Assembly (NCBI GenBank): GCA_944392955.1
Contig: CALXYK010000004.1
Span: 69,048 to 133,047, forward strand
Source of the DNA: an uncultured Alphaproteobacteria bacterium
Lineage (GTDB): Bacteria; Pseudomonadota; Alphaproteobacteria; Rs-D84; CACZYB01
Length of the DNA: 64,000 nucleotides
Direction: 5' to 3'
The position numbers and the translations under genes were made by a program. The notes below the pieces were generated by a model, which saw only the letters and a list, made by a program, of their open reading frames with translations, ran no database searches and had not been told where the DNA came from. The stretch's first letter is position 1; each line of letters starts with the position of its first letter. Shown here in pieces: positions 12,180-55,419 of this stretch.

Positions 12180-12794
12180 ATGAAATTTATATATACTATA
12201 ACTATGATAATTAAACGTTTTATTTCTGGCCCATTAGAGAATAATAATTACCTCGTTATTGATGAAAGTACAAACGAAGGTGTTTTAATAGATTGCAGTG
12301 AAATATCAAACAAAATAGATTCATACATAAGTAATAATAAAATCAATTTAAAATATATATTACTAACTCATGCACATTTTGATCATATATTAGGTGTGGA
12401 TTTTTTCAGACAAAAATACAAACCTTCTGTCTTCCTTCATAAAGATGATAAAGATTTATTAAATATGCTTAACACTTTCATTCCTAAGGCAAAAATTCCA
12501 ACTATTGATACATTTTTTGATGAAAATTTACACTTACAAATTGGAAATATAGATATAAAGATAATACACACGCCTGGACATAGTAATGGTAGTTGTTGTT
12601 TTTTAATAAAAGACAATCTTTTTTCAGGGGACACCCTATTTTACAAAGGATACGGAAGAACAGATCTTCCATTTGGAAATGAAAATAATTTATTCAAAAG
12701 TTTAACCAAACTTTTTTTACTTCCAAACGAAACAAAGGTATTTCCCGGTCATGGCTTTGAAACCAGTATAAAACAGGAAAAGTCTATTTACTAA
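12180..12794 (+). CDS. MBL-fold metallo-hydrolase (glyoxalase II / beta-lactamase-like)
   Basis: The HxHxDH motif (THAHFDHILG) plus downstream His and Asp ligands (HTPGHS, GDTLF) are present. Confidence 0.7.
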   Translation: MKFIYTITMIIKRFISGPLENNNYLVIDESTNEGVLIDCSEISNKIDSYISNNKINLKYILLTHAHFDHILGVDFFRQKYKPSVFLHKDDKDLLNMLNTFIPKAKIPTIDTFFDENLHLQIGNIDIKIIHTPGHSNGSCCFLIKDNLFSGDTLFYKGYGRTDLPFGNENNLFKSLTKLFLLPNETKVFPGHGFETSIKQEKSIY

Positions 12795-16153: not shown

Positions 16154-17572
16154 TTAAATATCTAATAACAACTTGTCGCTTATAATTTTATAAAAAGATA
16201 TTGACAACATAACTTTCTTGTGAATAAGACTACTGTAGGTTTCAAGACCCCCAGATTTGTTGCTGGAAGGTGTTTTCTTGGAACCTATTTCTTTTTGATT
16301 ATAAGACATTGGAATTAAATGTCTAGTAGCAACCTTATCAAGGAAGAAGTGAGCCATTTCGTGAGGTAGTGTTCCAAAGTTAAAGTTAGAACCTAGTACT
16401 ATTGCTTTTAATTCAGAATCAAAGAAGCCGTTTGCATTTTGATTTAGAATAGTGTCTTCTAAATTATTGTTGACATTAGTGTCTTGTGCTTTTGATAATT
16501 CTTTTATCCTATTTTTAATAGAATCACCAATTTTTAAATTAATTGTATTGACTTCTGTTTCTTTTGATTGTATATTAAAGTTATCAGCCCCTGATAAAGT
16601 GTCTTTGACGCGTTCGGGGGTTGTTTTAACTCTTACATTATATAAATCCAAGATGTTTTTATCTTGTCCTTTTACTTGTTCTGTTGCAAGTTCTACATCA
16701 TAATTTTTACCATTTATAATTATTGGACTTTTAAAATATATATATTTATCTATATTTGCTTTATGTTCTAAAGTTTCTTTTCTTGTATTATGTGATAAAT
16801 CTACATTTTCTTCATTTGTTTTAGTTGCATTATTTATTATTTTTTCAATACTATTAAGTGATGTTTGATGTCGTCTTTTTTGCCTATTATTTAATTTAAC
16901 ATTAGAGCGAATAACGTGTGCTTTATTTCCATCTGTAATTTGTATTTGTAAAGGTGGAGTAGATGTATCAAGAGGTTTTCCTATAAGTTCGTTGATATAC
17001 TTTTCAATATCTTTTTCTGTAATATTACCATCTTTAATATTTTTAAATTCTTCAGAAAGGTCTACTACATTACTACTTACTTCTCCTACTTCTTCTTGAA
17101 ACAGTATCTTTTCTACTGTATTGTCTACATCATTAGTATTCATAAAGACTGACTTAAGGTCCTTATCTGTAATTACTCCATCTTTGATTAAGCCGTCTGT
17201 TATAGAACTTTCTTGTAGAGTTTGAAGTGCTATATCTCTTTTTGTAAAAGAAATATTTTTTTTATTTTCTTTACGGCTCAATTTATCAACATAATTTTCT
17301 AAAAATTCTTGAGTTTGAACATCAGAACCGAATGTAAAAGCATAAAGTAAAGCATTAACATTTGTATCATTACCTACAACCATTGAAAAGTTTTCTTTGT
17401 TTGTATTTGGTAGTTTTGTTAAAACTTGTTGGAGTTCTTTGTTTAAATCTGTCTTTTTACCAATACTTACAATATCAGGAATGTTTGCTATGATATTTCT
17501 TTTTGCTACCGGTATTCTGTCTTCAAGTACTAAACTTTGATATAATGTTTTATTTTTAAGGATATTCGCCAT
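16154..17572 (-). CDS. Signal-less 472-aa protein with a C-terminal HExxH zinc-metallopeptidase-like motif (HEMAHFF); candidate secreted effector or toxin
   Basis: There is no signal peptide. The middle is long and charged. The C-terminal block GTLPHEMAHFFLDKVATRHLIP carries HExxH. Two DNA segments of this gene (16308-16334 and 16425-16485) recur in the upstream intergenic region (see pseudogene). It lies between an autotransporter and tRNA-Leu. Confidence 0.55.
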   Translation of the reverse strand: MANILKNKTLYQSLVLEDRIPVAKRNIIANIPDIVSIGKKTDLNKELQQVLTKLPNTNKENFSMVVGNDTNVNALLYAFTFGSDVQTQEFLENYVDKLSRKENKKNISFTKRDIALQTLQESSITDGLIKDGVITDKDLKSVFMNTNDVDNTVEKILFQEEVGEVSSNVVDLSEEFKNIKDGNITEKDIEKYINELIGKPLDTSTPPLQIQITDGNKAHVIRSNVKLNNRQKRRHQTSLNSIEKIINNATKTNEENVDLSHNTRKETLEHKANIDKYIYFKSPIIINGKNYDVELATEQVKGQDKNILDLYNVRVKTTPERVKDTLSGADNFNIQSKETEVNTINLKIGDSIKNRIKELSKAQDTNVNNNLEDTILNQNANGFFDSELKAIVLGSNFNFGTLPHEMAHFFLDKVATRHLIPMSYNQKEIGSKKTPSSNKSGGLETYSSLIHKKVMLSISFYKIISDKLLLDI

Positions 17573-21321: not shown

Positions 21322-22158
21322 TTACTTTAACACATAACACCAATCATTATTTTTTTTCATATCTTTACAAAGCATCTCTAACTCTTTTCTATCACCTACA
21401 AGATATAGTCTATAATACCAACCCTTTCCATCAACATTTTCATATCTAACAAAAGGTTCAAATATATTAAATTGTGGGTATTTATTCTCCAATATTTTCA
21501 AACCATCATATGCATTTTTTTCATTCAAATACGATGCAATATGAGCCATCGCAGTCCCTTGTTCTGTTTGTTCTATAAAATATCCATCTTGCATATTTTC
21601 TGTTAAAATAGATTTCGGAGCACTACCTTCAACAAGATTGTTTTGAGTAGTATTACTATCATTTAATAAGTCATTTTTCATTGTATCATCATATTCTTTT
21701 AAAACAAAATTGGCAAAATCGTTATTTTCTAAATCACTTTTTTCCAAAGTATCATCCACAACAGATTTTTCATTTTCTTTCGTTTTTTCAAGATGTATTG
21801 GTTTTAATTTCACCGGTGGCAAGTCATTGTTTTTTTGACTCTGTTCTGTCTCTATCCCACCTACAACTATCGTTTGAAAATCATCTTTATCTTTATCTTT
21901 ATTTTTATCATTTGTATTTTCATTCATATTTTCTACAACAGAAGTTTGCACATCATCTGTTTTTATCACAGATGATGATTCCTTGTTATCTTCCTCAACA
22001 GATTTTGGCATCAAACTATGCCTTAAATCAAACGAAGATATTTGATTTTTAATTTCGGGAAAAGGTTTATCATAATCTACCCCCTCTGCCAAAACAACAG
22101 GTGGGAAAGCAACTAAAAATAACAAAACATAAAAACAAGAAAACATTTTTCCCTCCAC
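21322..22158 (-). CDS. Secreted acidic hypothetical protein (278 aa); the C-terminal ~35 aa may be a SPOR-like fold
   Basis: The signal peptide is FYVLLFLVAFPPVVLAEG. The middle is Asp/Glu/Asn-rich. The C-terminus is GKGWYYRLYLVGDRKELEMLCKDMKK. It is divergent from the 22.2-kb coiled-coil gene. Confidence 0.5.
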   Translation of the reverse strand: MEGKMFSCFYVLLFLVAFPPVVLAEGVDYDKPFPEIKNQISSFDLRHSLMPKSVEEDNKESSSVIKTDDVQTSVVENMNENTNDKNKDKDKDDFQTIVVGGIETEQSQKNNDLPPVKLKPIHLEKTKENEKSVVDDTLEKSDLENNDFANFVLKEYDDTMKNDLLNDSNTTQNNLVEGSAPKSILTENMQDGYFIEQTEQGTAMAHIASYLNEKNAYDGLKILENKYPQFNIFEPFVRYENVDGKGWYYRLYLVGDRKELEMLCKDMKKNNDWCYVLK

Positions 22159-22225
22159 AACAACAAAATCTTGTCTTAATCATAAAATTATGATACAATA
22201 TATAAATCACAGGGGCAATAAAAAA

Positions 22226-24955
22226 ATGAGTGAATTTAAACTATCAACAGAAAACGATAAAAAAATAGATGAATTTAAAAATTTAAAATCTAAATATGAT
22301 GATTTTAATAAAGTATATGGTTTCAGAAAAATAAACCCTGTATACATATATATCACTGCTATTGTGTTAAGTTTGGTATGGATTGGACTTTTAATATATT
22401 ATGCAAGCAATAGTGTTTATAACTGGTCCTCATTGTTTAAAATGCTTCCTCATGAATTTGGTGGTTTTTTAGCAGGAACTATCGTTCCCATCGGCTTTAT
22501 ATGGATGGTCGCCCTTTACATAGATAAAAATATCAATTCCAATTATGAACATGAGGTAATTTACCCATTTTTACAAAGTATAATTGATCCACATGGGGAT
22601 ACATCTGTTATAACAAAGGTAATCACAAAAAAAATAGAAACAGAAACAACTGAATTAAAAAATACTATTAACAAATTTGTAGAATATTCTGAAAAATTAA
22701 GCAACATTCACAATGCTATATCTGAAAAGGTAAACAATACTATCCTATCTATAAAGGAACATGAAACTCATCTAAAATCTATTACAAATAATCTAAACAC
22801 CTCAACCGAGTCAATAGATGGTAAAGTCAGAAACATTTTAGAAATTATTTCAGAAAATATCGGATTATTAGTTGACACAACAAACAGCGCCGAAGAAAAA
22901 ACAAATTCTATAACAAAAAATTTATTATCAGAAACTGAAAAATTGGAAACCACCATTGAAAAAACCGCTAATATAGTAGAGGTAATCTCCCAAACAATAG
23001 ATACTAACTCTCTAAATATAGAAAGTTCCACAAAAAATGCTATCCAAAAGGCAAAGGAGATAGAAGAAACCTTTGATACAATTGGCAATAGAATTGTATC
23101 TTCTACCGAAGTAAGTGAAATACGTGCTAATCAATTATTAAACAACATTGAAGATAAAACAAATAACATCATTCAAAAAACAAATTTATCAGCAACAAAA
23201 ATAAACTATATGTATGAAACTATTTCATCGCTAATTGACACAATGGAAAAAATATCAAACGAACATAAAAAAGTATCAGAAAACAATTTACAAACTATCA
23301 ACACCCAATCAACTAATATAATAAAGGAATTAAAAGAACAAACCGAAAAATTTGAATATAATACAGGTTCTATCTTAGAAACTATCAATAACATAGAGGA
23401 AAAATTCAGCAATATAAACAACGGAATCGAAGGTATATCAAACAATATAATTCAACATTTCAAAGACATTGCCCTTGAAATAAAGGAGCAAAAAGATCAA
23501 CTTTACTCAACTTCTAACGAGGTAAGTCAAAATATAGATAGTGTATCTGAAAAATTTTTATTAGAAAAAAATCTATTTATTTCCTCAATATCAGATATAA
23601 AAGAAATTGCTACACAAACATCTGAAAATATGAAATCATCAGCAAACGATATAATTTTTACATCAAACAATATAAAAGGTACTGCACAAGAAATAAACGA
23701 ACTTATTACAAATTCCAGTAAAAATCTCAGTGCTCAAGCCGAAATAACATCAAAAGTTGCACACGATATAAAAACAACACTAACAAATGAAATAAATAAT
23801 TTAGAAGAGCTTGCAAACACCGTCGCAACTCAAAATAGATTGAGTGAAATGTCAATAGAAGAAGAAGGCAAAAAACTATCAAATATTACCGAAGAATTGT
23901 TAATTAAAATAGGCACCATGAACAGCAAGATATCTTCCACAATAAACAATATTTTAAACCTAAGTGGACAACTTGATAACAAATTCAATTCTATAAACGA
24001 AAACATTTTACAAAAATCTACACAGGCAGCAAAAATCATAAATGATAGCGTGGAAAGAAGTGTAAACTCATCAAATAATTTCAGGGAAATATCTTCTCAA
24101 TTTATTGAAAATTCAACAAAAACCAACTCTGACATAAACAAACTTATCTCCGAACTTAAAAAAGAAACAATGGTATTAGATGGCACTACAAAATCAGCCA
24201 AGGAATTAGTCGGAAGCATTTCTGCAGAAATTATAAAGGCTGCACAAAATATACCTGAACTAAATTCTAATATTCATAATATAAATAATAACTTAAAAAC
24301 TACCAACCAAAACATAGACCAAAGTATTTTAAATACAACTAAAAAAACAAATGAACTTATTCAAAATTTAAATCAAATAGAAAACAAATTTTCAAGGTTT
24401 GTAAACGAAAAATCATCCGAAATGGATTTAATTACAAATTCATCTACCCAAGCAATAACAAAAATTGCAAATTACACAAATAAATTAAATCAAGAAACAA
24501 AACAAACATTAGAAGATTTAAAAACACAATACGAAACTATACAAAATATATCTGGTTTAAACAAATCAAACTCAAATATAAAAACAACTAACACAAGTAA
24601 TTTTTTAAATGAAGCAGGTTTCATAATAGAAAAACTAAACTCTATTTCAATAGATATTTCATCAATACTATCCCCTGAAATAAATCAAGAACTATGGAAC
24701 AAATATAATGCCGGACACAAAAGTGTATTTTCTAGATACCTATCAAAAACCTTAGATAAGAGACAAATAAATAGTCTACATGAACTGATACACACTAATT
24801 CCGAATTTGCACAATATGTAAAATCATTTATAAAGGAATTTAATAATATCATAGCCAAGGCATCAACAACCGATAAAAGCGAGATTTTAGTAGAAACATT
24901 AACATCAACAGATATAGGCAAAATATACATGTTATTAAGGGAAATTGTACAATAA
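22226..24955 (+). CDS. Membrane-anchored giant coiled-coil protein (about 909 aa from the internal ATG), hypothetical
   Basis: The ATG at 22226 (MSEFKLS) follows an AGGGG SD; the ORF track begins earlier, at 22190. There are two N-terminal TM helices (IYITAIVLSLVWIGLLIYYA; FGGFLAGTIVPIGFIWMVALYI). After them comes ~800 aa of uninterrupted low-complexity helical sequence rich in N/I/S/T/E/K with heptad-like periodicity. A sigma70-like promoter TTGTCT-N17-TACAAT lies at about 22168-22196. Confidence 0.55.
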   Translation: MSEFKLSTENDKKIDEFKNLKSKYDDFNKVYGFRKINPVYIYITAIVLSLVWIGLLIYYASNSVYNWSSLFKMLPHEFGGFLAGTIVPIGFIWMVALYIDKNINSNYEHEVIYPFLQSIIDPHGDTSVITKVITKKIETETTELKNTINKFVEYSEKLSNIHNAISEKVNNTILSIKEHETHLKSITNNLNTSTESIDGKVRNILEIISENIGLLVDTTNSAEEKTNSITKNLLSETEKLETTIEKTANIVEVISQTIDTNSLNIESSTKNAIQKAKEIEETFDTIGNRIVSSTEVSEIRANQLLNNIEDKTNNIIQKTNLSATKINYMYETISSLIDTMEKISNEHKKVSENNLQTINTQSTNIIKELKEQTEKFEYNTGSILETINNIEEKFSNINNGIEGISNNIIQHFKDIALEIKEQKDQLYSTSNEVSQNIDSVSEKFLLEKNLFISSISDIKEIATQTSENMKSSANDIIFTSNNIKGTAQEINELITNSSKNLSAQAEITSKVAHDIKTTLTNEINNLEELANTVATQNRLSEMSIEEEGKKLSNITEELLIKIGTMNSKISSTINNILNLSGQLDNKFNSINENILQKSTQAAKIINDSVERSVNSSNNFREISSQFIENSTKTNSDINKLISELKKETMVLDGTTKSAKELVGSISAEIIKAAQNIPELNSNIHNINNNLKTTNQNIDQSILNTTKKTNELIQNLNQIENKFSRFVNEKSSEMDLITNSSTQAITKIANYTNKLNQETKQTLEDLKTQYETIQNISGLNKSNSNIKTTNTSNFLNEAGFIIEKLNSISIDISSILSPEINQELWNKYNAGHKSVFSRYLSKTLDKRQINSLHELIHTNSEFAQYVKSFIKEFNNIIAKASTTDKSEILVETLTSTDIGKIYMLLREIVQ

Positions 24956-27564: not shown

Positions 27565-28056
27565 TTATCTAGATTTTGAATACTTTGCTTCAAAAATCTG
27601 AGCCCTTTTCAAATCATTTACTTCTGCTAAAACTTCTTTAAATTCTGCTTCACAACGAAGTTGGTTTTCAATATCAATTTTCCTATTCAAATATTGTGAT
27701 AATAAAACCTTATCATGATCTTTTACATCAACTATATAGTTTTTCATTTTATTAGAAAGTTTTCCAAAAAACAAAGGATTTTTAATAGCCCCATCAATAG
27801 TTATTTCACTTTTTTGAAAACAAAAAGCAATCATATCTTCTGAGTATGTTAAATTTTCCAATCTTTGTTCTTCTTTTTTAAACTTAGCGAAATTTTCTTC
27901 TACTATATAATCAGTTAAAATTTTATTATTGAATTCTTGCATTTTACGAATTTCTTCGTCCTTACTTTTATTAGAAGCAATTCCAGCAACTAACAAAGTT
28001 CCTAATAAAATAATACCTGATACTTTTAAAAGTTTTTTTTGTAATTCTTTTTTCAT
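27565..28056 (-). CDS. Hypothetical membrane-anchored or periplasmic protein (163 aa)
   Basis: The N-terminal signal/anchor is LLKVSGIILLGTLLVAGIASN, followed by charged helical sequence. There are no motifs. Confidence 0.45.
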   Translation of the reverse strand: MKKELQKKLLKVSGIILLGTLLVAGIASNKSKDEEIRKMQEFNNKILTDYIVEENFAKFKKEEQRLENLTYSEDMIAFCFQKSEITIDGAIKNPLFFGKLSNKMKNYIVDVKDHDKVLLSQYLNRKIDIENQLRCEAEFKEVLAEVNDLKRAQIFEAKYSKSR

Positions 28057-41209: not shown

Positions 41210-41821
41210 TTATTTTTCTTCATCACTCTCAGTTTTTTTAGCTTTTTTTTCAGCTTTTCTAGCCAAAGTTTCAGCTTTTTTAAGTTCTCTTTCTGCCTTT
41301 GCATCAGCATCCAATATTGCTTTAGTCAAATCAAATTCTGAACAAATACCCAACAAAACAGGATTTCTAGGTTGTATTTCAGAAATACTTTTGTGTGTTC
41401 TTTCACGAATAGCATTTATAGTAGATTTAGTAGTCCTAACTAACTTACAAATTTGAGCATCTGAAATATTTGGATGATTTTTAATAAGCCACATAATAGC
41501 ATCAGGTCTATTCTGTCTATGAGCCATAGGTGTGTATCTAGATTTAACTTCATGACTTTTTCTAATAAATTCTTCTGAGTTTTTATTAAGGACAAGTCTT
41601 AAATCTGGATTTTTTTCACATTTTTCAATATCTTCCTTTGAAAGCATACCATTTAAAATAGGACTTGTTCCTACTATATAATCAGTTTGTTCCCTATCTG
41701 CCAAAGCCTGAACTTCCAAAACATGCATACCACAAAAATCTGCAATTTGTTCAAAAGTCAAAGCAGTATTATCAATCAACCAAACAGCCGTAGCCTTAGG
41801 CATTAAAATTTTTCCAACCAT
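41210..41821 (-). CDS. Conserved alphaproteobacterial DUF1013-like protein (203 aa), putative regulator
   Basis: I recognise the N-terminus LMPKATAVWLIDNTALTFEQIADFCGMHVLEVQ as the DUF1013 family found in Caulobacterales, Rhizobiales and Rickettsiales. The C-terminal tail is Lys/Glu-rich. Not verified by a search. Confidence 0.45.
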   Translation of the reverse strand: MVGKILMPKATAVWLIDNTALTFEQIADFCGMHVLEVQALADREQTDYIVGTSPILNGMLSKEDIEKCEKNPDLRLVLNKNSEEFIRKSHEVKSRYTPMAHRQNRPDAIMWLIKNHPNISDAQICKLVRTTKSTINAIRERTHKSISEIQPRNPVLLGICSEFDLTKAILDADAKAERELKKAETLARKAEKKAKKTESDEEK

Positions 41822-41935
41822 AATAAACTCCTATAAAGTTCAAGGGATAAGATTATCCAATTATTAAAAACACTAATGTTTTATACTCATTTTTCAAAAT
41901 TTTCAAGTAATTATTAAAAAGAAAGAATTATTTTA

Positions 41936-41964
41936 TTGATTAGAAGTAAAAAAAATGCTATAAT
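41936..41964 (+). promoter_or_regulatory. Sigma70-like promoter (TTGATT-N17-TATAAT) for paralog A
   Basis: TTGATT at 41936-41941, a 17-nt spacer, and TATAAT at 41959-41964. The ORF-track TTG start at 41936 is actually the -35 element. The real ATG is at 41987. Confidence 0.45.
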
Positions 41965-41986
41965 AAATAGTATAAAAAGGGATAAA

Positions 41987-43447
41987 ATGAGGAAAACAAA
42001 AGGATTCATAACATGTTTACTTTTTGTATCAATATATCTTATTGATACTCCTTTTGTTAAGGCACAACGCAATTCTCGTCGTCAAACCAAAACAACAACC
42101 GCTTCAAACTATGCTTCATCATCTGGATTACGAACTAATACAACATTAAGATGTGATAAACCTGGTGATCCTGGATGTATCGGAAGTCAGGGAAGTGCTT
42201 TTCTATCCTGTGGTAAAAATGCTCAAAAAAATAGTTCTCAAACCGCATGTGAATGTATAGATCCACTAAATTATGTAATAAATCCTGCAAATCCAAATGA
42301 ATGTATTGCTAAAACAGATTCTTTTGCAATCGCAGGTAAAAAGGCATGTGGTAATGCCTTAATAAATGCAATAGAAATTGAATGTGAAAATTCTTTCTAT
42401 AACAACGGAATGAATGAGGATAACACAATAAAATGTTATGATGCAAACGACTTATTCTTAAAATTTGACACCTCATCAATAGTTGTTTTTATAGAAGGCA
42501 TTCAATACAAATATGACGATGCATGCTATGCATATACCGAGGAATTAACAAAAAGCATTGCCGAAGATTATAATTTAACAGGTGCAAATTCACCAAATTG
42601 TAAATTAAAACGAACCATTGCCGAGGCATCAAACGAATGTTTTCAGGCAGTATTATCAACAGGAAAGGCAATGGGAGCAACCAATGCAATAGAAACCAAA
42701 CTTGAAAGTCTTTGTGGTATACAGGGGTTAAGGACAAAATGGACTAAATTATTCGGGGAAGAGGAGTTAAAGGGAATAATATTCCCAACAAATATTCCTC
42801 AACTATATATCAATGCTGGTAAGTTAAACCCTGCTGATGGTTTAGAATTAGTTGGAAATGTTCTTGATGGGAAATTCACCGACAAAAGTAATACTTGGGA
42901 AAGGGATATAACTATGATATTAAATTCCCACCTAAACGAAGTTGCCAGTGCCTGTGGACAGGAATATGCCACACAAATGCACAATACCGACATACAGATA
43001 TCAGATGAAAAATCATCTCTTCAAAGAGCTATTGACGAACAAGGTAGCATAAAGGGTGCACAAACATGGATAATGCAACAAGCATCTACTATAATAGGTG
43101 AAAACAAGGCAAATAAACTTGTCCGCGAAGGAACAATTGGCGGCATTAAGGATGAAGATATAGGAAACAACTCTTCAACAACAATATTAGAGTTAAGCCA
43201 AATCACCGAAGAAGAATTAGCACAACAAAACAACTTAACTTCTGGAATATATCTATTAACTTCTGGGAATAAGTATAGAATTGTTGAAATAAGGAAAACT
43301 GGAACAGGTACAACTGCAACAATTGAATATAAAACCATTCCATATTCAAACGATTTACAACTTTCCACTGATGCTTTAAAAGCAATAATTGGAAAAGAGG
43401 AAGATACAACATTAAACCAAAATGATTATATATCATTAGATAATTAA
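41987..43447 (+). CDS. Secreted protein, paralog family member A (Arg-rich mature N-terminus, conserved Cys blocks)
   Basis: ATG at 41987 (MRKTKGF...). The signal peptide is ...IDTPFVKA|QRNSRRQTKTTTAS. The shared block ITMILNSHLNEVASACGQEYATQMHNTDIQISDEKSSLQRAIDEQGSIKG aligns with members B and C. Confidence 0.65.
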   Translation: MRKTKGFITCLLFVSIYLIDTPFVKAQRNSRRQTKTTTASNYASSSGLRTNTTLRCDKPGDPGCIGSQGSAFLSCGKNAQKNSSQTACECIDPLNYVINPANPNECIAKTDSFAIAGKKACGNALINAIEIECENSFYNNGMNEDNTIKCYDANDLFLKFDTSSIVVFIEGIQYKYDDACYAYTEELTKSIAEDYNLTGANSPNCKLKRTIAEASNECFQAVLSTGKAMGATNAIETKLESLCGIQGLRTKWTKLFGEEELKGIIFPTNIPQLYINAGKLNPADGLELVGNVLDGKFTDKSNTWERDITMILNSHLNEVASACGQEYATQMHNTDIQISDEKSSLQRAIDEQGSIKGAQTWIMQQASTIIGENKANKLVREGTIGGIKDEDIGNNSSTTILELSQITEEELAQQNNLTSGIYLLTSGNKYRIVEIRKTGTGTTATIEYKTIPYSNDLQLSTDALKAIIGKEEDTTLNQNDYISLDN

Positions 43448-43457
43448 GGAGAAAAAT

Positions 43458-44819
43458 ATGACTAAAAAATTAATTGCATTGATAGGACTTTCACTATTAT
43501 TTTCACCTCAATCCAATGCGGCAAGGAATACACGTAGAGCAAGCAGTAATACACGATCTGCCTCTCAAAATGTTAGGGTAACAGGACGCACCGTAAACAT
43601 AAATGCGAATGTTTCTGATACTACATATACAGAAACAGATTACTCTAAAATAGCACCCGCAACAGATCCTATTGCAAAAAGGAAATGTACCGAACTTGTA
43701 GTAGAAGCCCTAACCGAATATTGTGGCACTGATGAAGAAAACAAGGAATGTAATAATACGACAGAAGGTTCAAATGAATCTTGTGGCACTGTTAAAAAAT
43801 GTAAAAATGCAACAGAAGCCTATGCAAAAATAAAAATAGAAGATAATCCAAACGGACCTAACGAAATTTATTGTGCTAATTTCATAGAAGAGGCAGTAAA
43901 CAACCTATGGGATTCATTCGATACTTACAAGGCAACAAATGAAAAAAATTGTAATATTGCTTTGGCACGATCCCTTGCTGCCGAAGAATGTTATAGATAT
44001 GCATTAACACAAAAAAATGTTAGATTCTCCATAAACTCCTTTGAAACATTCAAAGAAGAAGAACTCTCAATGTGTAATAAAGCAGCCGTTGTAAAAATAT
44101 ATAAAACAATATCAAACGGAGATACTATAACAGAAGATGAAGCTGGTGACAATATTGCAAGTTATTTTTCCAAGGTTGGTGCAAGTGGCTGGACAAATCT
44201 AGCAGTATACACAAGATTGCTTGACGCAAACGTTGATCTTACAACAACTGAATTCCCACGTGATTTAATCTTATTGGTAAATAGTTTGAAATCCCAAGGA
44301 AATATGATGTGTGGTCAGGATCATTATACCGAACTTGTTGATGCAAATATCCAATTGATTGATAAGACTGGATCTTGGGAAAAACAAATCAAAGAAAAAG
44401 GAGCAATTGCTGGTACCGCAGATTATATTGCAGATACAACAGAATCTATCGTAAATCTAAGGACTTTATTGTCTAATACAATAAAATCAGACAAAGCTGA
44501 AAAAACAGCTCAAAATGCAGAAAAAGCAACTGAAAAACTAGCAGAAATAGATAATGACATTACAATCATAACTGCAAATATTTCAAGATTATCAGATGAG
44601 AACAAAAACAAAAAAGATACAGATAATAACGAAGATTTATCTTTATCAGAACACTTAAATAAAATTTCTGATTTACGAAATAATCTTCCTGAACAAACTG
44701 CAAATGACTACTCTGATAAAATAAAAGAGCTAGAAAAGGAAATCAAAAACACAAAAACTAAATTTAAAAAAGTAAAAGGTAATGAAATAGACTATAATAT
44801 CAACTACCGAAATTCATAA
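43458..44819 (+). CDS. Secreted protein, paralog family member B
   Basis: An SD (AAGGAG) precedes the ATG at 43458. The signal peptide is ...LLFSPQSNA|ARNTRRASSNTRSAS. It shares blocks with C: KRKCTELVVEALTEYCG, NNLWDSFDTYKATNEKNCNIALARSLAAEECYRYALTQKN, and FPRDLILLVNSLKSQGNMMCGQDHY...WEKQIKEKGAIAG. Confidence 0.7.
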   Translation: MTKKLIALIGLSLLFSPQSNAARNTRRASSNTRSASQNVRVTGRTVNINANVSDTTYTETDYSKIAPATDPIAKRKCTELVVEALTEYCGTDEENKECNNTTEGSNESCGTVKKCKNATEAYAKIKIEDNPNGPNEIYCANFIEEAVNNLWDSFDTYKATNEKNCNIALARSLAAEECYRYALTQKNVRFSINSFETFKEEELSMCNKAAVVKIYKTISNGDTITEDEAGDNIASYFSKVGASGWTNLAVYTRLLDANVDLTTTEFPRDLILLVNSLKSQGNMMCGQDHYTELVDANIQLIDKTGSWEKQIKEKGAIAGTADYIADTTESIVNLRTLLSNTIKSDKAEKTAQNAEKATEKLAEIDNDITIITANISRLSDENKNKKDTDNNEDLSLSEHLNKISDLRNNLPEQTANDYSDKIKELEKEIKNTKTKFKKVKGNEIDYNINYRNS

Positions 44820-44837
44820 CTTTTTTAAAAACAACCT

Positions 44838-44870
44838 AAAAAAACTCCTATCAAATAGGAGTTTTTTTTA
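44838..44870 (+). terminator. Rho-independent terminator after paralog B
   Basis: AAAAAACTCCTAT-caa-ATAGGAGTTTTTTTTA. Confidence 0.65.
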
Positions 44871-44914
44871 AATAATCCTTGCCCTACTTTCAAAACAATG
44901 ATATAATGAATGGT

Positions 44915-47362
44915 ATGAAAAAATTTTTATTTGCATTATTTTTATTTTTCACAATTCCTGTTTTTGCAAACGATGGAACCGATAATTCTGTAAAAAAACA
45001 ATTAAACATAAAATTTGAACAAAACACTCCAAATAATTTAAAAAAGGCAGCATCAAAATTTATTGAAATAAAGGATCTATATTGTCAAAATAACAACAAT
45101 GCCTTATGTTCAAAATCATATCAATATTCAAATATTTTATCTCAAATAAACACCGCAACCTTTGAACCTACTACTGAAAATTTTCAACTTATTGCAAATT
45201 TTTATAAGGAATTACAGGAATTTTCCAACGAACAAAACAGAATTGAAACCGCCAATAAAAATGACCTTATCGCTCAAATACAAACTAAAAAAACTTTGTT
45301 AAAAACTAACCTAAATAATTTAATAGACTTATTAAATAAGGAAAATTCATTACTTCCAAACCCATTACCACAGGATAAACAATTATCAAAGAATCTAACC
45401 AAACTTTCAAAGGATGATTTAAATAAAAACGACACAAATTTAAAAACACGACAAACCCAACTTACAAATTTAAAATTGCATAATGCACAAAAGGAAATAA
45501 CTTCTGATATACAAATACCTGAAAATATACAAAATTTATCAGAACAAGAATTGAAAAATATTTTACAAACAATAAGTGAGCAGGAAACTGCTATCAACAA
45601 CCAAATTCAACTTACAAATAACAATATAACTATTTTAGAAACAGAAAATGCATCTAAGGAAGCAGAATACAAAAATCTTTTACAAGAATTAACAAAGGCA
45701 AAACAAAAACAGGCTGAACTTTTAAATAAAAAAGATCTTGTCCCAGATAATAAAGGTAATGATAAAAATACCAACGACAAATTATTCAACGAACTTAAAA
45801 ATACAATTACTGATGAAAATAAAAATAATATTAAACAATACAATATCGTTGCAGAATCTTATTCTACAAACGAAGACATTGAAAAGATAAAACAAGAAAT
45901 AGAAAATGTAAATAATAACACAAAACTTCTTGAAAACTTCTTAAATAATCAAAAAAATGAATTGGAAAAATGTGAAAAGGAATTATCATCTATAATAACA
46001 AATATTGATGAATTAAAACCTATGACACTTGAACAATGTCAAAAGGAACTTAAAAAAGCACAAGATGAAAAAATAGAAAAAGAATGTATCGCAGAAAGAT
46101 TAAAGGAATGTTCCGATGAAATAGGAAACCTAAAATCTTTATTCAAATCATCTGTTCAAAATGGAACACCTGACGGATACAAATACCTATACGAAAGTAG
46201 AACTTCATATTGTGCCGATGAAAACAATCCTGTATATGGTGTTGAATGGGTTGGCAATGTTGCTAAAAAAGTAGATACTTTGAAATGGATGTTAAAACCA
46301 ACAAAAAATGTGGAAAATAATCAATGTAGATACAATAATTCCCTACACACAATTACAATATTATCTTTATCCGATGCAAAGGAAAAACTTAAAACTTGTG
46401 TCCGTGATTTAAGACTATTGCAAGAAATAGAAAAGGAATGTAGCGGACTAACTCCTTTACCTGACATATCTGAGATAAAGGGAAGTTCCAATGTTGAAAA
46501 TTATATAAACATAAAGGAAAGCGATTTTAATCAATGTCAAAATAGCATAACTTTATACAAAGGTGTACCTAATACAGCTACTATCGGAAACAACAAGGCA
46601 ATAAAATATTGTAGGAATGCTATTGCATCCGAAGCTTGCAACACCTATCTTGCTGGTGCAATATTGAAATACAAACAAAAAGGATATAATTATTCTTTAA
46701 CCATTCCTGATAACAAATTATCTACCTGTAAATCATACATAGAAGAAAGTTTATGTAATAAATACAGGACAGAAAATAGTATAACTGAAAAACCAACTAC
46801 ACAAAGTGGACAGGAAAGTTATGCCTATACAACTCAGTGTCTAGAATTAGATAATGCTTATGCAAAGATAAAGGAAAATCTAAATTCTATTTCCAGCAGT
46901 GAAATAACATCTTTGGGACAAATAATAAAAAATCAATATGGAAATTTATCTTGTGGATATGGTTGTAGTGCAAGTAGTTTGTTAAAGCGTTCTGATGCAA
47001 ATGATGGTAAGTATCAATCATCTTATGACAGCCAAATAAAATCTTTTGCTGAAAAATATAATGCATTATGTAAATACAATGATAAAACAAGTGCAATACA
47101 AAAAGTTGGAAAAGAAAAAAATAATAATCAATCAAAATACAAAGATGGTTCAATAGATAGCGAAATAGAAAATATTGAAGACATAATGTTTTTAAGGTTA
47201 AAGGAGTTAAATGTCCTAAACAAAAGTCAATTCAATGGAACATCATTAGATTTTCAAAAGAAAAGTTTTGCAAAATTCTTGTTCCATATATACATATACC
47301 ACCATAACTTAAACGCATCTGGATCAATATGTGATCAGGCAAAGGTAATAAGCGAACACTAA
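44915..47362 (+). CDS. Large secreted coiled-coil protein with a Cys-rich C-terminal third (about 815 aa)
   Basis: ATG at 44915 (MKKFLFALFLFFTIPVFA|NDG signal peptide). Residues ~100-430 are Asn/Lys/Glu/Leu-rich coiled-coil. The C-terminal ~350 aa carry at least 20 Cys in spaced pairs. A short motif NAYAKIKEN echoes member B (EAYAKIKIEDN). Confidence 0.6.
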   Translation: MKKFLFALFLFFTIPVFANDGTDNSVKKQLNIKFEQNTPNNLKKAASKFIEIKDLYCQNNNNALCSKSYQYSNILSQINTATFEPTTENFQLIANFYKELQEFSNEQNRIETANKNDLIAQIQTKKTLLKTNLNNLIDLLNKENSLLPNPLPQDKQLSKNLTKLSKDDLNKNDTNLKTRQTQLTNLKLHNAQKEITSDIQIPENIQNLSEQELKNILQTISEQETAINNQIQLTNNNITILETENASKEAEYKNLLQELTKAKQKQAELLNKKDLVPDNKGNDKNTNDKLFNELKNTITDENKNNIKQYNIVAESYSTNEDIEKIKQEIENVNNNTKLLENFLNNQKNELEKCEKELSSIITNIDELKPMTLEQCQKELKKAQDEKIEKECIAERLKECSDEIGNLKSLFKSSVQNGTPDGYKYLYESRTSYCADENNPVYGVEWVGNVAKKVDTLKWMLKPTKNVENNQCRYNNSLHTITILSLSDAKEKLKTCVRDLRLLQEIEKECSGLTPLPDISEIKGSSNVENYINIKESDFNQCQNSITLYKGVPNTATIGNNKAIKYCRNAIASEACNTYLAGAILKYKQKGYNYSLTIPDNKLSTCKSYIEESLCNKYRTENSITEKPTTQSGQESYAYTTQCLELDNAYAKIKENLNSISSSEITSLGQIIKNQYGNLSCGYGCSASSLLKRSDANDGKYQSSYDSQIKSFAEKYNALCKYNDKTSAIQKVGKEKNNNQSKYKDGSIDSEIENIEDIMFLRLKELNVLNKSQFNGTSLDFQKKSFAKFLFHIYIYHHNLNASGSICDQAKVISEH

Positions 47363-47363
47363 A

Positions 47364-47966
47364 ATGATTTCAAAACTAAAAGGCATAATAGACACAATAA
47401 CTGATAACCAAATAATAGTAGATGTAAATGGTGTCGGATATGGTGTCTTTGTATCACTATCAACGATATCAAAAATAACACTAAACTCACCTATATCTTT
47501 GTGGATAGAAACCATAGTAAGAGAAGATAGCATCACTCTTTACGGATTTTTATCACAAAATGAACATGATTATTTTAATTTATTAATAACCGTTCAAGGC
47601 ATCGGGCCAAAGGCAGGATTATCAATACTATCCGCATTATCTCCCGAACAAATATCTTCTGCTATTATTTCAAACGATATTTCTGCATTTACATCTGCAA
47701 ATGGCATTGGTAAGAAAACCGCCGAACGAATAATAACAGAATTAAAAGATAAAATAACAAAAACAAATATCAACTTGGAATTATCAAATATTTCAACTGA
47801 GATAAAAACAAATACAAAAACCGAAGATGCAATTTCTGCACTTCAAAACCTTGGATACACACGATCTCAAAGTTTTGAAATAGTTGTAAAAATAATAAAC
47901 AACACCCCTGATATATCATTAAATGATTTAATAAAATTATCATTAAAAGAAATAAATAATTTCTAA
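47364..47966 (+). CDS. ruvA: Holliday junction DNA helicase subunit RuvA
   Basis: A 200-aa protein. N-terminal OB-fold (MISKLKGIIDTI...VDVNGVGYGV), two HhH motifs (GIGPKAG, GIGKKTAERI) and C-terminal domain III are present. There is no ruvB downstream. Confidence 0.85.
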   Translation: MISKLKGIIDTITDNQIIVDVNGVGYGVFVSLSTISKITLNSPISLWIETIVREDSITLYGFLSQNEHDYFNLLITVQGIGPKAGLSILSALSPEQISSAIISNDISAFTSANGIGKKTAERIITELKDKITKTNINLELSNISTEIKTNTKTEDAISALQNLGYTRSQSFEIVVKIINNTPDISLNDLIKLSLKEINNF

Positions 47967-48009
47967 AAAAACCTTTAAAAAATATAAAAATTATAGTATA
48001 ATACAAAAC

Positions 48010-49668
48010 ATGAAAAAAAGATTTTATATATTATTTTTTATATCTGTTGGTTTTTTAATAAATTCCAATGTTTTTTCAGCACCAAATCGCTCACAACGAT
48101 CCCGTTCTGCATCAACTTCTATCAATACTATTCGCGGGAATTACAATACTTCAACAAATACTTATACCGGAACTAAAACAACTACAACCACACAAACCAG
48201 TAATGATACTTTACAATGTGGTATTGCACCTGATGCGACAAACAATCTTGCAAAACGACAATGTGCAATTGCTATGGCCGAAGCGTTAAAGTTATATTGT
48301 GCTTCATATCCATGCAACAGCAAAATAAAGGTTGAACTATCTTTTAATTTTGCACTACCAAGTTTAGAAAAAATATCCTCTACAATAAATGGTGAAAGTT
48401 GTTCGGGTGCAAATCTTGATAAATTTTGTGCACCATTCCAAAGTTCTTTGATAAATAATCTTTGGGATTTATATTCTGAACAATCTATAAGAGATAGAAA
48501 AAACTGCGATATGGCAAAGGCAAAATATTCCGCAGCCCAAGATTGCTTTGCATATATACAATCTGCTAAAAACAATTCTGTCGGCAACAGATTTAGTAAA
48601 AGTAAAATCACCGAACTTGATAAAGAAATAGATAAACGATGCGGTAAAGAAGCAATCATAAATAAATATAAATCTATCAGTATTGATGATTGGACCGAAG
48701 AAGATGAAAATACATTCTTTAAAAACATAAGTTTCACTTCAAATGCAACAGGCGAACTTATAGACTCTTATCAAGGAGAAAAGCAATTATCTTCCACTGT
48801 TGCAAGTTTATTTGCAAATACAGGGGACAATACATGGAATTATGCCGGACAAATTGGAAGACTTTTTGATCTTAATTTCAGCACTAAATCTTCTACATAT
48901 CCAAGGGAGTTAGTCGTAATAGCAAACACATTTGTAACAGAAGGAGAAGCTGCTTGTGGTAAAGATTTTAAAGTTGATATGGAAACAACATCATTTGAAA
49001 TAAGTGATTCTCGCTCTGCACTTGAAAAACAAATTGCAAAGAAAGGTATATTAAAAGGATTGTTTGATTTTGGTATAGATAATACCGTTGGTGCAATAAG
49101 CGAGGATAAGGCTCAAAGTTGGAAAGAAAAAGGTATCCTCGGCAAAGTTTCAGAAAGCAAAGATAAAAAAACGGCAGAACAACTTGATAAAATTTTATCA
49201 AAATTACAAATTCTTTCAACAAATTGTAATACATCTGCTGGTAATTTTGAACAAATAACAACAGAAATAAAATTTATATTAAACGAATTAAAAACAATAA
49301 TAGGAAACACAGATAGATTTGAAGCAAACAAAGAAAAAATAAGAGAAGTTTTAGATACTATATTAACATTCAAAAGGGATCCTAACGAAGAAATAACAAT
49401 AACTTCTAATACCCAGGCTGAATTTAACTTAACAATATTAAAGTTAGAAACTTTAAGATTTACATGTCCAAATGGCGACTTTAATACAACTGAACAAGAA
49501 ACTATCCAGTATGAATTTAGTTATGATACTTCTGCTCCTAATGTAATAAATACCATACTAAATTCTTTAAAGGAAAGTGTAATATTTACAGGAACATTGA
49601 TATATTCTGATTATGAAAATGGTGAAGAAATCAAACAAATATTAGCACCACTAAATGATATAAAATAA
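48010..49668 (+). CDS. Secreted protein, paralog family member C
   Basis: The signal peptide is ...INSNVFSA|PNRSQRSRSASTSINTIRGN. The blocks KRQCAIAMAEALKLYCAS, NNLWDLYSEQSIRDRKNCDMAKAKYSAAQDCFAYIQSAKN and YPRELVVIANTFVTEGEAACGKDF...LEKQIAKKGILKG align with A and B. Confidence 0.7.
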   Translation: MKKRFYILFFISVGFLINSNVFSAPNRSQRSRSASTSINTIRGNYNTSTNTYTGTKTTTTTQTSNDTLQCGIAPDATNNLAKRQCAIAMAEALKLYCASYPCNSKIKVELSFNFALPSLEKISSTINGESCSGANLDKFCAPFQSSLINNLWDLYSEQSIRDRKNCDMAKAKYSAAQDCFAYIQSAKNNSVGNRFSKSKITELDKEIDKRCGKEAIINKYKSISIDDWTEEDENTFFKNISFTSNATGELIDSYQGEKQLSSTVASLFANTGDNTWNYAGQIGRLFDLNFSTKSSTYPRELVVIANTFVTEGEAACGKDFKVDMETTSFEISDSRSALEKQIAKKGILKGLFDFGIDNTVGAISEDKAQSWKEKGILGKVSESKDKKTAEQLDKILSKLQILSTNCNTSAGNFEQITTEIKFILNELKTIIGNTDRFEANKEKIREVLDTILTFKRDPNEEITITSNTQAEFNLTILKLETLRFTCPNGDFNTTEQETIQYEFSYDTSAPNVINTILNSLKESVIFTGTLIYSDYENGEEIKQILAPLNDIK

Positions 49669-49727: not shown

Positions 49728-50978
49728 ATGAACGAAGATTCAAAAAATATAAAATATTGTTCTTTTTGTGGTAAATCACAACACGAAGCAAAAAAATTAA
49801 TTGCCGGTCCAAATGTTTTTATTTGCGATTCGTGTATAAATCTTTGTATGAATATAATAAAAGAGGAAAATAAAAAAACTATTTCTGAAAGTGCATCTAA
49901 TAACCCTACACCATTGGAAATGCTTGAACATCTTGATGATTATGTAATAGGTCAGCGAAAGGCAAAAAAGGTTTTATCTGTTGCCGTTTACAATCATTAC
50001 AAACGCCTTTACAATAGCGAAGTTAAAAACGATGTTGAAATACAAAAATCAAACATATTACTAATAGGTCCAACAGGAAGCGGAAAAACCTTACTTGCAA
50101 GTACTTTGGCAAAGGTTTTAGATGTTCCTTTTACTATCGCAGATGCAACAACATTAACCGAGGCAGGTTATGTAGGTGAAGATGTTGAAAATATTCTAGT
50201 TCGTCTTCTTCAAGCAACAAACTATGATATAGAAAAAGCACAAAAGGGTATCGTTTACATAGATGAAATTGATAAAATTTCACGAAAATCTGATAACCCT
50301 TCTTTAACAAGGGATGTAAGTGGTGAAGGTGTTCAACAGGCTCTTTTAAAACTAATAGAAGGTGCCGTTATATCAGTTCCTCCACAAGGTGGAAGAAAAC
50401 ACCCACAACAGGAGTTTATACAATTTGATACATCAAATGTTCTATTTATTTGTGGTGGTGCATTTGAAGGAATTGATAAAATAATAGAACGAAGAACAGA
50501 AAAAACTTCTATGGGATTCGGTGCTACAATTGCATCTAAACAGGAAAGAAATGTTTCTGCCCTACTTTCAAAAATAGAACCCGAAGACATAATAAAATTC
50601 GGAATAATACCTGAAATGATGGGACGAATGCCTATAATAGTAACATTGGACGAATTAAATCAAGAAGCATTATGCTCCATATTAACAGAACCTAAAAATG
50701 CACTTGTAAAACAATATAAGGCATTGTTTGCAATGGAAAATGTTGAACTTGAATTCACAGATGATAGTTTAGAAGCCATCGCTCAAAAGGCAATAAAACG
50801 AAAAACCGGAGCCAGGGGCCTTCGCTCAATAATAGAAGAGTTGCTATTAGATACTATGTTTGAACTTCCAAACAATAAAAACATAGAAAAGGTAGTAGTT
50901 AATAAAGAAATTGTTGAAAAAGAAAAAAATCCTATTATAATCCTCCAAGATAAAAAAAAGGAGAAAAAAATAATTTAA
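49728..50978 (+). CDS. clpX: ATP-dependent Clp protease ATP-binding subunit ClpX
   Basis: An N-terminal C4 zinc finger (CSFCGKS...CDSC), Walker A GPTGSGKT, Walker [10 protein letters not shown] and the pore loop GYVG are present. Confidence 0.9.
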
Positions 50979-54131: not shown

Positions 54132-54521
54132 ATGAAAAAAACACTACTTTTACTTTTAATAATAACATATGCAACCCCATCATATGCACTAACACTACAA
54201 ACATTAAAAGATACTCTTGAAAAATATTGTGTTCCTAATACCGCCACTTGCTTAGATCCGAAATTACAGGCGGATTATACAAACGGCAAATGTGTATGTA
54301 AAGAAGATGGTCGCTATTGGAACAAAGAAGACAGAGCCTGCGAAGAATGCACCGGACCAACAATAGTAAATGAAGAAGGTGACGGCTGTAAACCAATCAA
54401 ATGCCCTGATGGTTATGCAATAATTTTAATAACAGATGGAAATTGCCCTTCTGGATATTATCTAGCACAAATACAAAACGGAAATTGTCCTGCGGGCTAT
54501 GAACTTTGGAGTTATAAATAA
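54132..54521 (+). CDS. Small secreted Cys-rich protein (129 aa) with CPxGY-type repeats
   Basis: An SD (AACAGGAGAG) precedes the ATG. The signal peptide is LLLLLIITYATPSYA|LTLQ. There are 12 Cys, including KCPDGYAIILITDGNCPSGYYLAQIQNGNCPAGYELW. Confidence 0.6.
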   Translation: MKKTLLLLLIITYATPSYALTLQTLKDTLEKYCVPNTATCLDPKLQADYTNGKCVCKEDGRYWNKEDRACEECTGPTIVNEEGDGCKPIKCPDGYAIILITDGNCPSGYYLAQIQNGNCPAGYELWSYK

Positions 54522-54540
54522 AAAAGAAAGAGAGGAAAAC

Positions 54541-55419
54541 ATGAAACTAAAACATTCACTTTTGATATGTATAAGCGGTGGAATTGCCATCACATCACAA
54601 ACACTTAATGCACAAACATTTTACCAATGTATCCAATGCAAAAGCGGAACCTATGCCACAAGCACAGGTTGCGAACCTTGTCCAAAGGGATATTATTGCA
54701 CAGACGGAATAAAAACTGCCTGCCCTGAATTTCAGACCACTTCTAGCACAGGAAATTCAAGTAGTAGTGCTTGCCATATTCAAGAAGTAAAAATTTATGG
54801 TAAAAGTGTAACATCTGGGGTAATATCAACTCAATATGAGACTATTCCTGTAAACCATAGTGCATTCACTTGTGACAAAAACAGTTTTCCTAAATTATTT
54901 GGAACTGGTGGACTTACTCCAAGTATAAGTGGATGTGTGGTAAGTATTTTAGGACATTATACATATGATATAGGTAAATATGGCAATGGACAATATTACA
55001 ACATAGTTTGTGATGGAATACCATGTAATGAATATCATGTAGAAAAAGTAAATACCTGCTCAGCTGGATACTATATACCTTCTGGCTCAACATCGTGTCA
55101 ACCATGTGGTTATGGATACTATTGCTCTGGCGGAAAAAGAACCGGTTGTCCTGTTAATAAAACAACAACTACTACAACAGCATCAAGTTCAAGTGCTTGC
55201 ATAGATCAATATTGGGGTTTCAGATACAAAACTAGTTCTGGAACTTCAACATTAAAATATAAAATTGAACAAGTAGGTTATTGCCCTATACAAAGTGGTT
55301 GTACCTTCATTGATGCAACAGGGGCAATAGGAGGAGGAGCTGGAGGAACTTACATGGGATTATGTTCAACTAGTGGACCTTGTTCTCACCCTACTATAAT
55401 CAAATACACACCACAGTAA
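54541..55419 (+). CDS. Secreted Cys-rich repeat protein (about 292 aa) with eukaryote-like C-x-P-C-x-x-G-Y-Y-C repeats
   Basis: The ATG at 54541 follows the SD AAAGAGAGGAAAAC. The ORF-track start at 54499 overlaps the upstream gene. The signal peptide is ...ITSQTLNA|QTF. Repeats include CIQCKSGTYATSTGCEPCPKGYYCTDGIKTACPEF and CSAGYYIPSGSTSCQPCGYGYYCSGGKRTGCPVNKTT. Poly-Thr/Ser linkers (TTTTTTASSSSAC) are present. Confidence 0.6.
   Translation: MKLKHSLLICISGGIAITSQTLNAQTFYQCIQCKSGTYATSTGCEPCPKGYYCTDGIKTACPEFQTTSSTGNSSSSACHIQEVKIYGKSVTSGVISTQYETIPVNHSAFTCDKNSFPKLFGTGGLTPSISGCVVSILGHYTYDIGKYGNGQYYNIVCDGIPCNEYHVEKVNTCSAGYYIPSGSTSCQPCGYGYYCSGGKRTGCPVNKTTTTTTASSSSACIDQYWGFRYKTSSGTSTLKYKIEQVGYCPIQSGCTFIDATGAIGGGAGGTYMGLCSTSGPCSHPTIIKYTPQ

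Follow-up and report, generated by a model that had tools for sequence, protein, structure and literature searches.

We describe here four genes for exported proteins, named A, B, C and D, in a 64,000-nucleotide (nt) stretch of DNA (hereafter, the window) from an uncultured alphaproteobacterium. According to the list of open reading frames (ORFs), all four lie on the plus strand: A at 41987–43447 (486 amino acids, aa), B at 43458–44819 (453 aa), D at 44915–47362 (815 aa) and C at 48010–49668 (552 aa). A, B and C belong to an orphan family characterized by a predicted signal peptide, an acid-free basic tail, a V-x-G-T motif and a putative helical core of about 260 aa with eight Cys residues, features that the three window proteins share with every full-length relative. 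Based on the sequences and their variation, we propose with a rough probability of 40% that A–D form a complex that is anchored in the envelope, exposed at the surface at least in part, and used in contacting a host surface or a partner cell.

The original prediction had called A, B and C secreted paralogs, and their paralogy was confirmed by BLASTP (B–C: 2e-32, 26% identity over 437 aa; A–C: 1e-16; A–B: 1e-12). The N-termini of A, B, C and D each showed a positive n-region, a hydrophobic core and a small-x-small cleavage site, and the signal peptides, called by a heuristic on these three features and not by SignalP, had lengths of approximately 26, 21, 23 and 18 aa, respectively; both the signal peptides and the mature N-termini quoted previously were thus present on re-examination. 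ATG 41987 was confirmed as the start of A because its ortholog at the related locus L001 (49% identical) aligned from residue 1. No lipobox was found in any of the four proteins, whose signal peptides end in VKA, SNA, VFS and VFA followed by Q, A, A and N, with no Cys at +1, and no Tat twin-arginine motif was found before the hydrophobic core (n-regions MRKTKG, MTKK and MKKR). The mature parts contained no transmembrane-like segment (maximum 19-residue Kyte–Doolittle mean 0.6–1.0), and the autotransporter barrel PF03797 gave no match in A, B, C or D in a scan that found the true autotransporter of the window.

After the predicted cleavage site, A begins with the basic tail QRNSRRQTK..., B with ARNTRRASSNTRSAS and C with APNRSQRSRSAS; the Arg clusters of these tails fall past the cleavage site and not in the n-region. 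The first 25–30 mature residues of A, B and C of the window contain 4–6 Arg/Lys, no acidic residue and 14–17 Ser/Thr/Asn. By residue counts over the first 25 mature residues, the Arg-rich mature N-terminus held in all three subfamilies, as previously claimed (mean basic and acidic residues: 5.6 and 0.8 for subfamily A, 4.8 and 0.5 for B, 6.6 and 0.1 for C), indicating that the basic tail is a conserved property and not a conserved sequence. It is followed by a conserved V-x-G-T-like motif, in which G43 of B is nearly invariant. In E. coli, basic residues directly after the Sec cleavage site are disfavoured. Conservation of the tail despite such disfavour suggests that it has a function, e.g. 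binding of an anionic partner. Beyond the tail, A carries an extra N-terminal module (six more Cys), the 8-Cys helical core and a helical tail; B the 8-Cys core at approximately residues 65–330 and a helical tail of about 120 aa, which is missing from many orthologs; and C the 8-Cys core, to which a C70/C131 pair is added, together with a long helical tail that holds the C406/C486 pair.

The shared Cys blocks noted in the original prediction correspond to eight universal columns, present in essentially all A-, B- and C-type members (C77, C89, C115, C139, C165, C178, C206 and C285 in B). Mature A contains 14 Cys, six of which are the N-terminal additions of the A-type; the two additional pairs of the C-type bring its number to 12, all invariant in the 19 C orthologs. 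B of the window carries an allele-specific insertion of 20 aa (residues 93–112, 43734–43793, plus strand) with two extra Cys, C98 and C109, and this insertion was missing in the same-species alleles L014 and L016 and in the L001 ortholog. Among 64 diverse full-length mature A/B/C members, 63 had an even Cys count (range 6–16). Cys residues are therefore gained or lost in pairs, which matches obligatory disulfide pairing and hence folded proteins outside the cytoplasm; judging from this Cys parity, the exported A/B/C proteins are very probably disulfide-bonded.

The statement that no known family could be assigned also stood. By Pfam hmmscan, no family was found for A, B, C or D singly, for 66 family members or for 7 D orthologs (searched at E ≤ 1 for HBL/ClyA and Sel1/TPR); the cluster proteins had no match in NCBIfam, none among the PADLOC defence models at E ≤ 0.01 and none in a sequence-profile search of the PDB, and neither plasmids (tblastn) nor viral contigs yielded relatives. 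The combined A+B+C profile retrieved 77 proteins, and a filter-free HMMER profile search against 1.84 billion representatives returned just 31 clusters (50% identity). Every family member was typed as A, B or C, with no fourth subfamily. The relatives of C, for example, numbered 19 (40–52% identity), all from uncultured metagenomic sources, and one was titled "MAG: hypothetical protein [Alphaproteobacteria bacterium]"; the orphan family is known from metagenome-assembled genomes (MAGs) only. About 40 separate matches to 468-aa B-type proteins were considered as a sign of extreme allelic diversity, an idea that was dropped since they are 96–99.8% identical to each other.

An AlphaFold2 model of B built with 66 sequences was all-alpha, with a mean predicted local distance difference test score (pLDDT) of 70.5 and values of about 90 for core residues 60–300; that of C was weaker (pLDDT 65) and likewise all-alpha. 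Foldseek returned no structural match with E < 1. According to these models, the A/B/C core, being without match among solved structures, may represent a new disulfide-stabilised helical fold.

D was described in the original prediction as having at least 20 paired Cys in its C-terminal third. Its Cys-richness stood, with 20 Cys in total, but not their location: C57 and C65 lie near the N-terminus and the other 18 are spread over residues 353–806 (45971–47332, plus strand), i.e. the C-terminal ~56%. The protein is thus laid out as an N-terminal conserved module, a Cys-free helical region at approximately residues 100–350 and a Cys-rich C-terminal half. The latter includes the units CRNAIASEAC and CKSYIEESLC, that is, Cx8C, about 29 residues, and Cx8C, and Cx8C was the commonest Cys spacing across D orthologs (23 occurrences), with the same arrangement of units in the clade of the window. 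For the long coiled coil also claimed in D, the support was compositional, together with a heptad heuristic and weak Pfam matches. When hhalign was used to compare D with the A/B/C profile, signal peptides alone were matched. A homolog search from D alone returned just D, in which low-complexity words probably crowded out candidates, and D orthologs were collected by synteny. The gene at the D position (the D slot) always encoded a Cys-rich protein, of 484–1287 aa (2.6-fold) across species, with 16–42 Cys and an invariant N-terminal Cys pair. L007 was the only locus without a signal peptide, owing to a miscalled ORF start. In the allele at locus L003, which has 42 Cys, Cx8C modules are repeated in tandem.

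When species-representative genomes were scanned, 10 loci were obtained, all in gut or rumen MAGs, with water deer rectum, a rumen RUG assembly and a Hadza sample among the sources in the record titles. These records, together with a GC content of 0.26–0.35 in the window, indicate a gut-associated, AT-rich alphaproteobacterium, in line with the host-associated one that had been supposed. The order rpoD, TrcR, A, B, D-slot gene, ruvA, C, clpX and cmk was found at every locus spanning the region, with one A, B, C and D each per genome in at least 10 species. Therefore, the set, which had been seen as wedged into a housekeeping neighbourhood, did not enter it recently; the fixed order and the always Cys-rich D slot show that it is ancestral and stably inherited, and neither a recent island nor an expanding family. 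Further copies, for which a search had been advised, were seen neither in the 64-kb window (tblastn) nor in related genomes, each of which had one of each. A, B and C are ancient paralogs (20–26% identity) with 1:1:1 orthologs. Amino-acid identity to the window was 57–94% for rpoD, TrcR, ruvA, clpX, cmk and rpsA, 42–58% for A, 40–53% for B and 39–50% for C, and that of D was at most 34% or undetectable.

Evolutionary rates were evaluated as dN/dS (nonsynonymous over synonymous substitutions per site) among orthologs and alleles; the ratio between paralogs was passed over because synonymous sites are saturated at 20–26% identity. Between species (NG86), dN/dS was 0.15–0.49 for A, B and C and about 0.87–0.91 for D, versus 0.02–0.16 for housekeeping genes. 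Over all comparisons, gene-wide values ranged over 0.13–0.5 for A, B and C and from 0.13 to ~0.9 for D, and exceeded 1 for no gene. Within the species of the window, represented by alleles L016, L014 and L017 (flanking dS about 0.01–0.05), dN of A and B was 3–8 times that of the flanking genes (dN = 0.015–0.023, 0.025–0.032, 0.004 and 0.005 and dN/dS = 0.37–0.41, 0.46–0.49, 0.19 and 0.13 for A, B, C and D, respectively; dN at most 0.006 and dN/dS = 0–0.30 for flanking housekeeping genes). The fractions of variable sites among the available alleles were 12% for B, 6.4% for A, 2.9% for C and 2.4% for D.

The replacements in A and B were clustered (scan-statistic P ≤ 1e-3). In A, the variable patch occupies residues 229–241 (42671–42709, plus strand) within the loop that joins Cys218 and Cys243 of the core, and it takes up 7 of the 13 replacements in A versus L014 (P < 1e-4). 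Patch 1 of B (residues 190–202, 44025–44063, plus strand) lies in the homologous Cys178–Cys206 loop, which the B model also shows as a loop, of lower pLDDT, and patch 2 (residues 246–261, 44193–44240, plus strand) has a pLDDT of about 50. Nonsynonymous and synonymous changes in the patches numbered about 23:5, which is roughly neutral, and A and B had raised dS as well. The loops may have exchanged short allelic tracts, or selection on them may be relaxed or positive.

A different kind of variation was observed in D between the two strains of loci L003 and L005, whose housekeeping proteins are 99–100% identical (dS about 0.02–0.03). D has 1287 aa in L003 (5496–9359) versus 1057 aa in L005 (6179–9352), and the two are 69% identical with dN = 0.23 and dS = 0.25, the latter about 10 times the flanking dS. 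Their flanks are about 75% identical in protein sequence and their centres, of about 460 aa in L003 and about 220 aa in L005, are unrelated. Such a mosaic is typical of recombining loci under diversifying or balancing selection, and it is the strongest hint of exposure to an external agent that we found. The strain-level variation sits in two short core loops of A and B and a central cassette of D, and not mainly in the C-terminal regions as first supposed. As for the diversifying family that had been envisaged, hypervariability at the strain level, as would be expected for exposed proteins, bore it out in part, but there was neither recent expansion nor change in copy number.

In the complex that we propose, A, B and C would share the helical core held by four conserved disulfides, and their acid-free Arg/Lys/Ser/Thr-rich tails would bind an anionic component such as lipopolysaccharide (LPS), peptidoglycan, phospholipid or host glycans. 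The variable helical C-terminal tails of A/B/C and the long helical Cx8C protein D would project outward, with D and the two variable A/B loops as the exposed and selected parts. Surface-structure machinery is plausible, given that the organism is a diderm and that the 64 kb also contain an autotransporter and a type IV pilin-like gene, and retention of the set in every relative found, together with its conserved promoters and terminator, suggests that it is important to the lineage. Several points weigh against such a complex. A–D have no beta-barrel, lipobox or type I secretion signal, no type II secretion system (T2SS) was seen in the 64 kb, and the default location of such Sec substrates is the periplasm. 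The strain signal consists of two allele classes in the species of the window and one pair of strains for D, and recombination between alleles, more than any proven positive selection, is what the raised dS suggests. The 1:1:1 orthology, fixed synteny among essential genes and dN/dS < 1 also fit a housekeeping role in the envelope. In addition, if the lineage is Rs-D84, which does not respire (PMC12306168), the oxidising power for disulfides would be in doubt.

An alternative view, which we hold to be somewhat unlikely, is that A–D are a lineage-specific periplasmic or envelope housekeeping scaffold, e.g. a link between outer membrane and peptidoglycan or a periplasmic spacer, the tails of which would bind peptidoglycan or inner-leaflet lipids. 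A Sec signal as the only targeting feature, with nothing directing the proteins to the outer membrane, would be expected of such a scaffold, as would one copy each per genome in synteny with rpoD, ruvA and clpX, the 1-nt gap between D and ruvA, gene-wide dN/dS below 1 and the normal envelope machinery encoded in the window (TolB, MlaD, Lnt and a LysM-M23 peptidase). Against this view, shielded proteins fitted to fixed envelope dimensions would hardly be expected to show the swapped cassette of D with its 230-aa length gap between strains of 99–100% identical housekeeping proteins, the range of 484–1287 aa across species or the clustering of loop replacements in A and B. Improbable, in our estimation, is that the four genes have no common function, the A/B/C paralogs being near each other by chance and D unrelated, as an accident of a gene-poor and rearrangement-poor genome. 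The sequence of D is indeed unlike those of the three paralogs, D and ruvA separate C from A and B, the genes form three separate transcription units, and the whole region is syntenic including unrelated housekeeping genes, so that conserved order alone says little; but all four proteins share an unusual set of traits, being helical and fast-evolving with a signal peptide and an even number of Cys, and all four genes were kept together in every genome found.

The same three paralogs, mostly helical, exported, of similar size (450–550 aa) and encoded close together, also recall the secreted tripartite alpha-helical toxins of the ClyA family (Hbl, Nhe and AhlABC), with D as an accessory. We regard this as very improbable, because no Pfam match to HBL/ClyA was obtained with the 66 members even at E ≤ 1, the ClyA match ranked 35th, below many generic spectrin-like bundles and with about 115 residues aligned, Foldseek gave nothing at E < 1, and no hydrophobic head segment was present (maximum 19-residue mean about 1.0); no profile or fold match went beyond generic helical bundles. 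Moreover, ClyA-type toxins are not known for a four-disulfide core or a basic tail of the A/B/C kind. A bolder form of the surface-exposed complex is a long shot: A–D would build a disulfide-cross-linked protein coat or attachment structure found only in one order of gut alphaproteobacteria with reduced genomes. Its A/B/C subunits would be anchored by their basic tails, and D would be a recombining, hypervariable fibre that binds host mucosa or a partner microbe on which the bacterium depends. If true, this would mean a new fold and a novel class of envelope appendage, and would offer molecular access to how the lineage lives.

The lineage of the window may be the order Rs-D84 (Ca. Enterousia), which is described as non-respiring, with genomes of < 1 Mb and a proposed dependence on a partner organism (PMC12306168). 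If so, the four orphan exported genes, approximately 6.9 kb, take up about 0.7–0.9% of the genome, and A–D would be strong candidates for the point of contact with whatever supports these bacteria. No relative found has lost any of them, although few genes of the region evolve faster or recombine more. The family profile with three subfamilies and eight Cys, the variable loops and the cassette are hereby defined for population genomics, metaproteomics and structural work.

Three other systems resemble A–D in some respects. The Helicobacter Hcp proteins of Sel1-like repeats are also Sec-exported, all-helical and host-associated, and their Cys pairs staple helix hairpins; their Cx7C pairs recur with a period of about 36 residues, versus Cx8C units about 29 residues apart in D. 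This is a resemblance only: no Sel1/SLR Pfam match was found in A, B, C, D or the 7 D orthologs, A, B and C are not repeat proteins, and Hcp proteins have neither the basic tail nor the three-paralog organisation. Chlamydial OmcB and OmcA are Cys-rich exported envelope proteins of about 500–550 aa from a reduced-genome bacterium, and a basic N-terminal segment of OmcB has been reported to bind host glycosaminoglycans. By analogy, OmcB is a possible functional counterpart, as part of a disulfide-linked envelope or adhesin layer. On the other hand, no sequence, Pfam or NCBIfam relation was detected, OmcB is beta-rich, unlike the predicted all-alpha structures of A, B and C, and here there is no lipoprotein partner and the organism has peptidoglycan-related genes. 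Trypanosome variant surface glycoproteins (VSG) and Borrelia Vsp/Vlp proteins are Cys-stabilised helical bundles with recombining loop or cassette variability, which parallels the D mosaic and the A/B loops. Unlike in those systems, there is one copy per gene here and no multigene archive or copy-number expansion, and no homology was detected.

Transcription signals were evaluated by phylogenetic footprints only and not by raw scan counts, since a raw promoter scan of the window gave 60 matches versus 51.6 ± 7.3 expected from shuffled sequence. The consensus promoter ascribed to A was among these matches and proved to be conserved: both hexamers of the A–B promoter (41936–41964, plus strand; TTGATT, 17-nt spacer, extended −10 TGcTATAAT) were kept in 7 species, in which the A proteins are 42–58% identical to that of the window. 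Upstream of it, in the TrcR–A intergenic region, we observed a strongly conserved block of about 30 nt, TTTATACTnATTTTTAnAAnTTTTCAAGT (41879–41908), whose minus strand resembles TTGAAA ... TATAAA; to judge from its sequence, this is probably a divergent TrcR promoter or a shared operator. D and ruvA are preceded by a promoter at 44879–44907 (plus strand; cTTGcCC, 17-nt spacer, TGaTATAAT), conserved in 8 of 9 species with its −10 element ending 6–7 nt before the D ATG (7 nt in the window), and this position supports ATG 44915 as the start of D over the 818-aa call of the database. C has a promoter-like site at 47974–48002 (plus strand), in which TATAAT ends 7 nt before the ATG; the −10 element was kept in 8 species at 6–7 nt. 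As this spacing is the usual distance from a −10 element to the transcription start, the D and C mRNAs are suggested to be leaderless or near-leaderless.

Shine–Dalgarno sequences and terminators had been attributed to both B and C. This was right for B, which has AAGGAG and is followed by an intrinsic terminator (44838–44868), a palindromic hairpin with flanking A and T runs; 8 of 9 species had a hairpin and T-run in this position, although their stem sequences differed. For C, neither was detected, there being no recognisable Shine–Dalgarno sequence upstream of its ATG and no terminator between C and clpX. D likewise has no Shine–Dalgarno sequence (44879–44917). The likely transcription units are A–B, D–ruvA and C, the last possibly reading into clpX, which has its own promoter-like site and Shine–Dalgarno sequence.

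Five plus-strand genes, A, B, D, ruvA and C, lie between the divergent TrcR/DUF1013 gene (41210–41821, minus strand; Pfam TrcR, 4.9e-50) and clpX, which flanks C downstream (49728–50978). ruvA (47364–47966, plus strand, 200 aa; Pfam RuvA_N, HHH_5 and RuvA_C) has its ATG 1 nt past the stop codon of D (47360–47366 in the window; likewise 9351–9355 in L001) and is a housekeeping passenger of the cluster and not a functional member. In this arrangement, a DNA-repair gene is apparently co-transcribed with the hypervariable envelope gene D. The original prediction that ruvA had lost its usual ruvB partner stood in so far as no ruvB adjoins ruvA here or in 10 related loci, nor was one found elsewhere in the window.

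Besides an autotransporter and a type IV pilin-like protein, the products encoded in the window include TatC, SecF, Lnt, MlaD, TolB, a LysM-M23 peptidase and LPS-type glycosyltransferases. From this gene set, the organism is a diderm with peptidoglycan. The autotransporter (12791–15931, minus strand, 1046 aa) has a C-terminal beta-domain (PF03797, 1.2e-29) and a passenger region of about 775 aa to which no Pfam family was assigned. The pilin-like protein (10551–11078, plus strand, 175 aa; N-terminus G followed by RSIVEMLGVLAIMGV; PilS_N, 3.6e-09) is encoded by a solitary gene between uvrC and an epimerase gene, and hints at a type IV filament or a T2SS-like system in a small genome.

No Pfam match was obtained for a 921-aa protein (22190–24955, plus strand) with a hydrophobic N-terminal region, after which about 800 aa of low complexity, rich in Asn, Ser, Thr, Glu, Lys and Ile, are probably helical; nor was a Pfam family found for the ORFs at 4459–5544 (plus strand), 21322–22158 (minus strand), 27565–28056 (minus strand) and 54499–55419 (plus strand), which encode 163–361 aa. 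Lastly, a 472-aa protein (16154–17572, minus strand) gave a marginal match to the large polyvalent protein-associated domain 3 (LPD3; 1.2e-06, 29.2 bits versus a cut-off of 27), the usual setting of which is polyvalent proteins of mobile elements.

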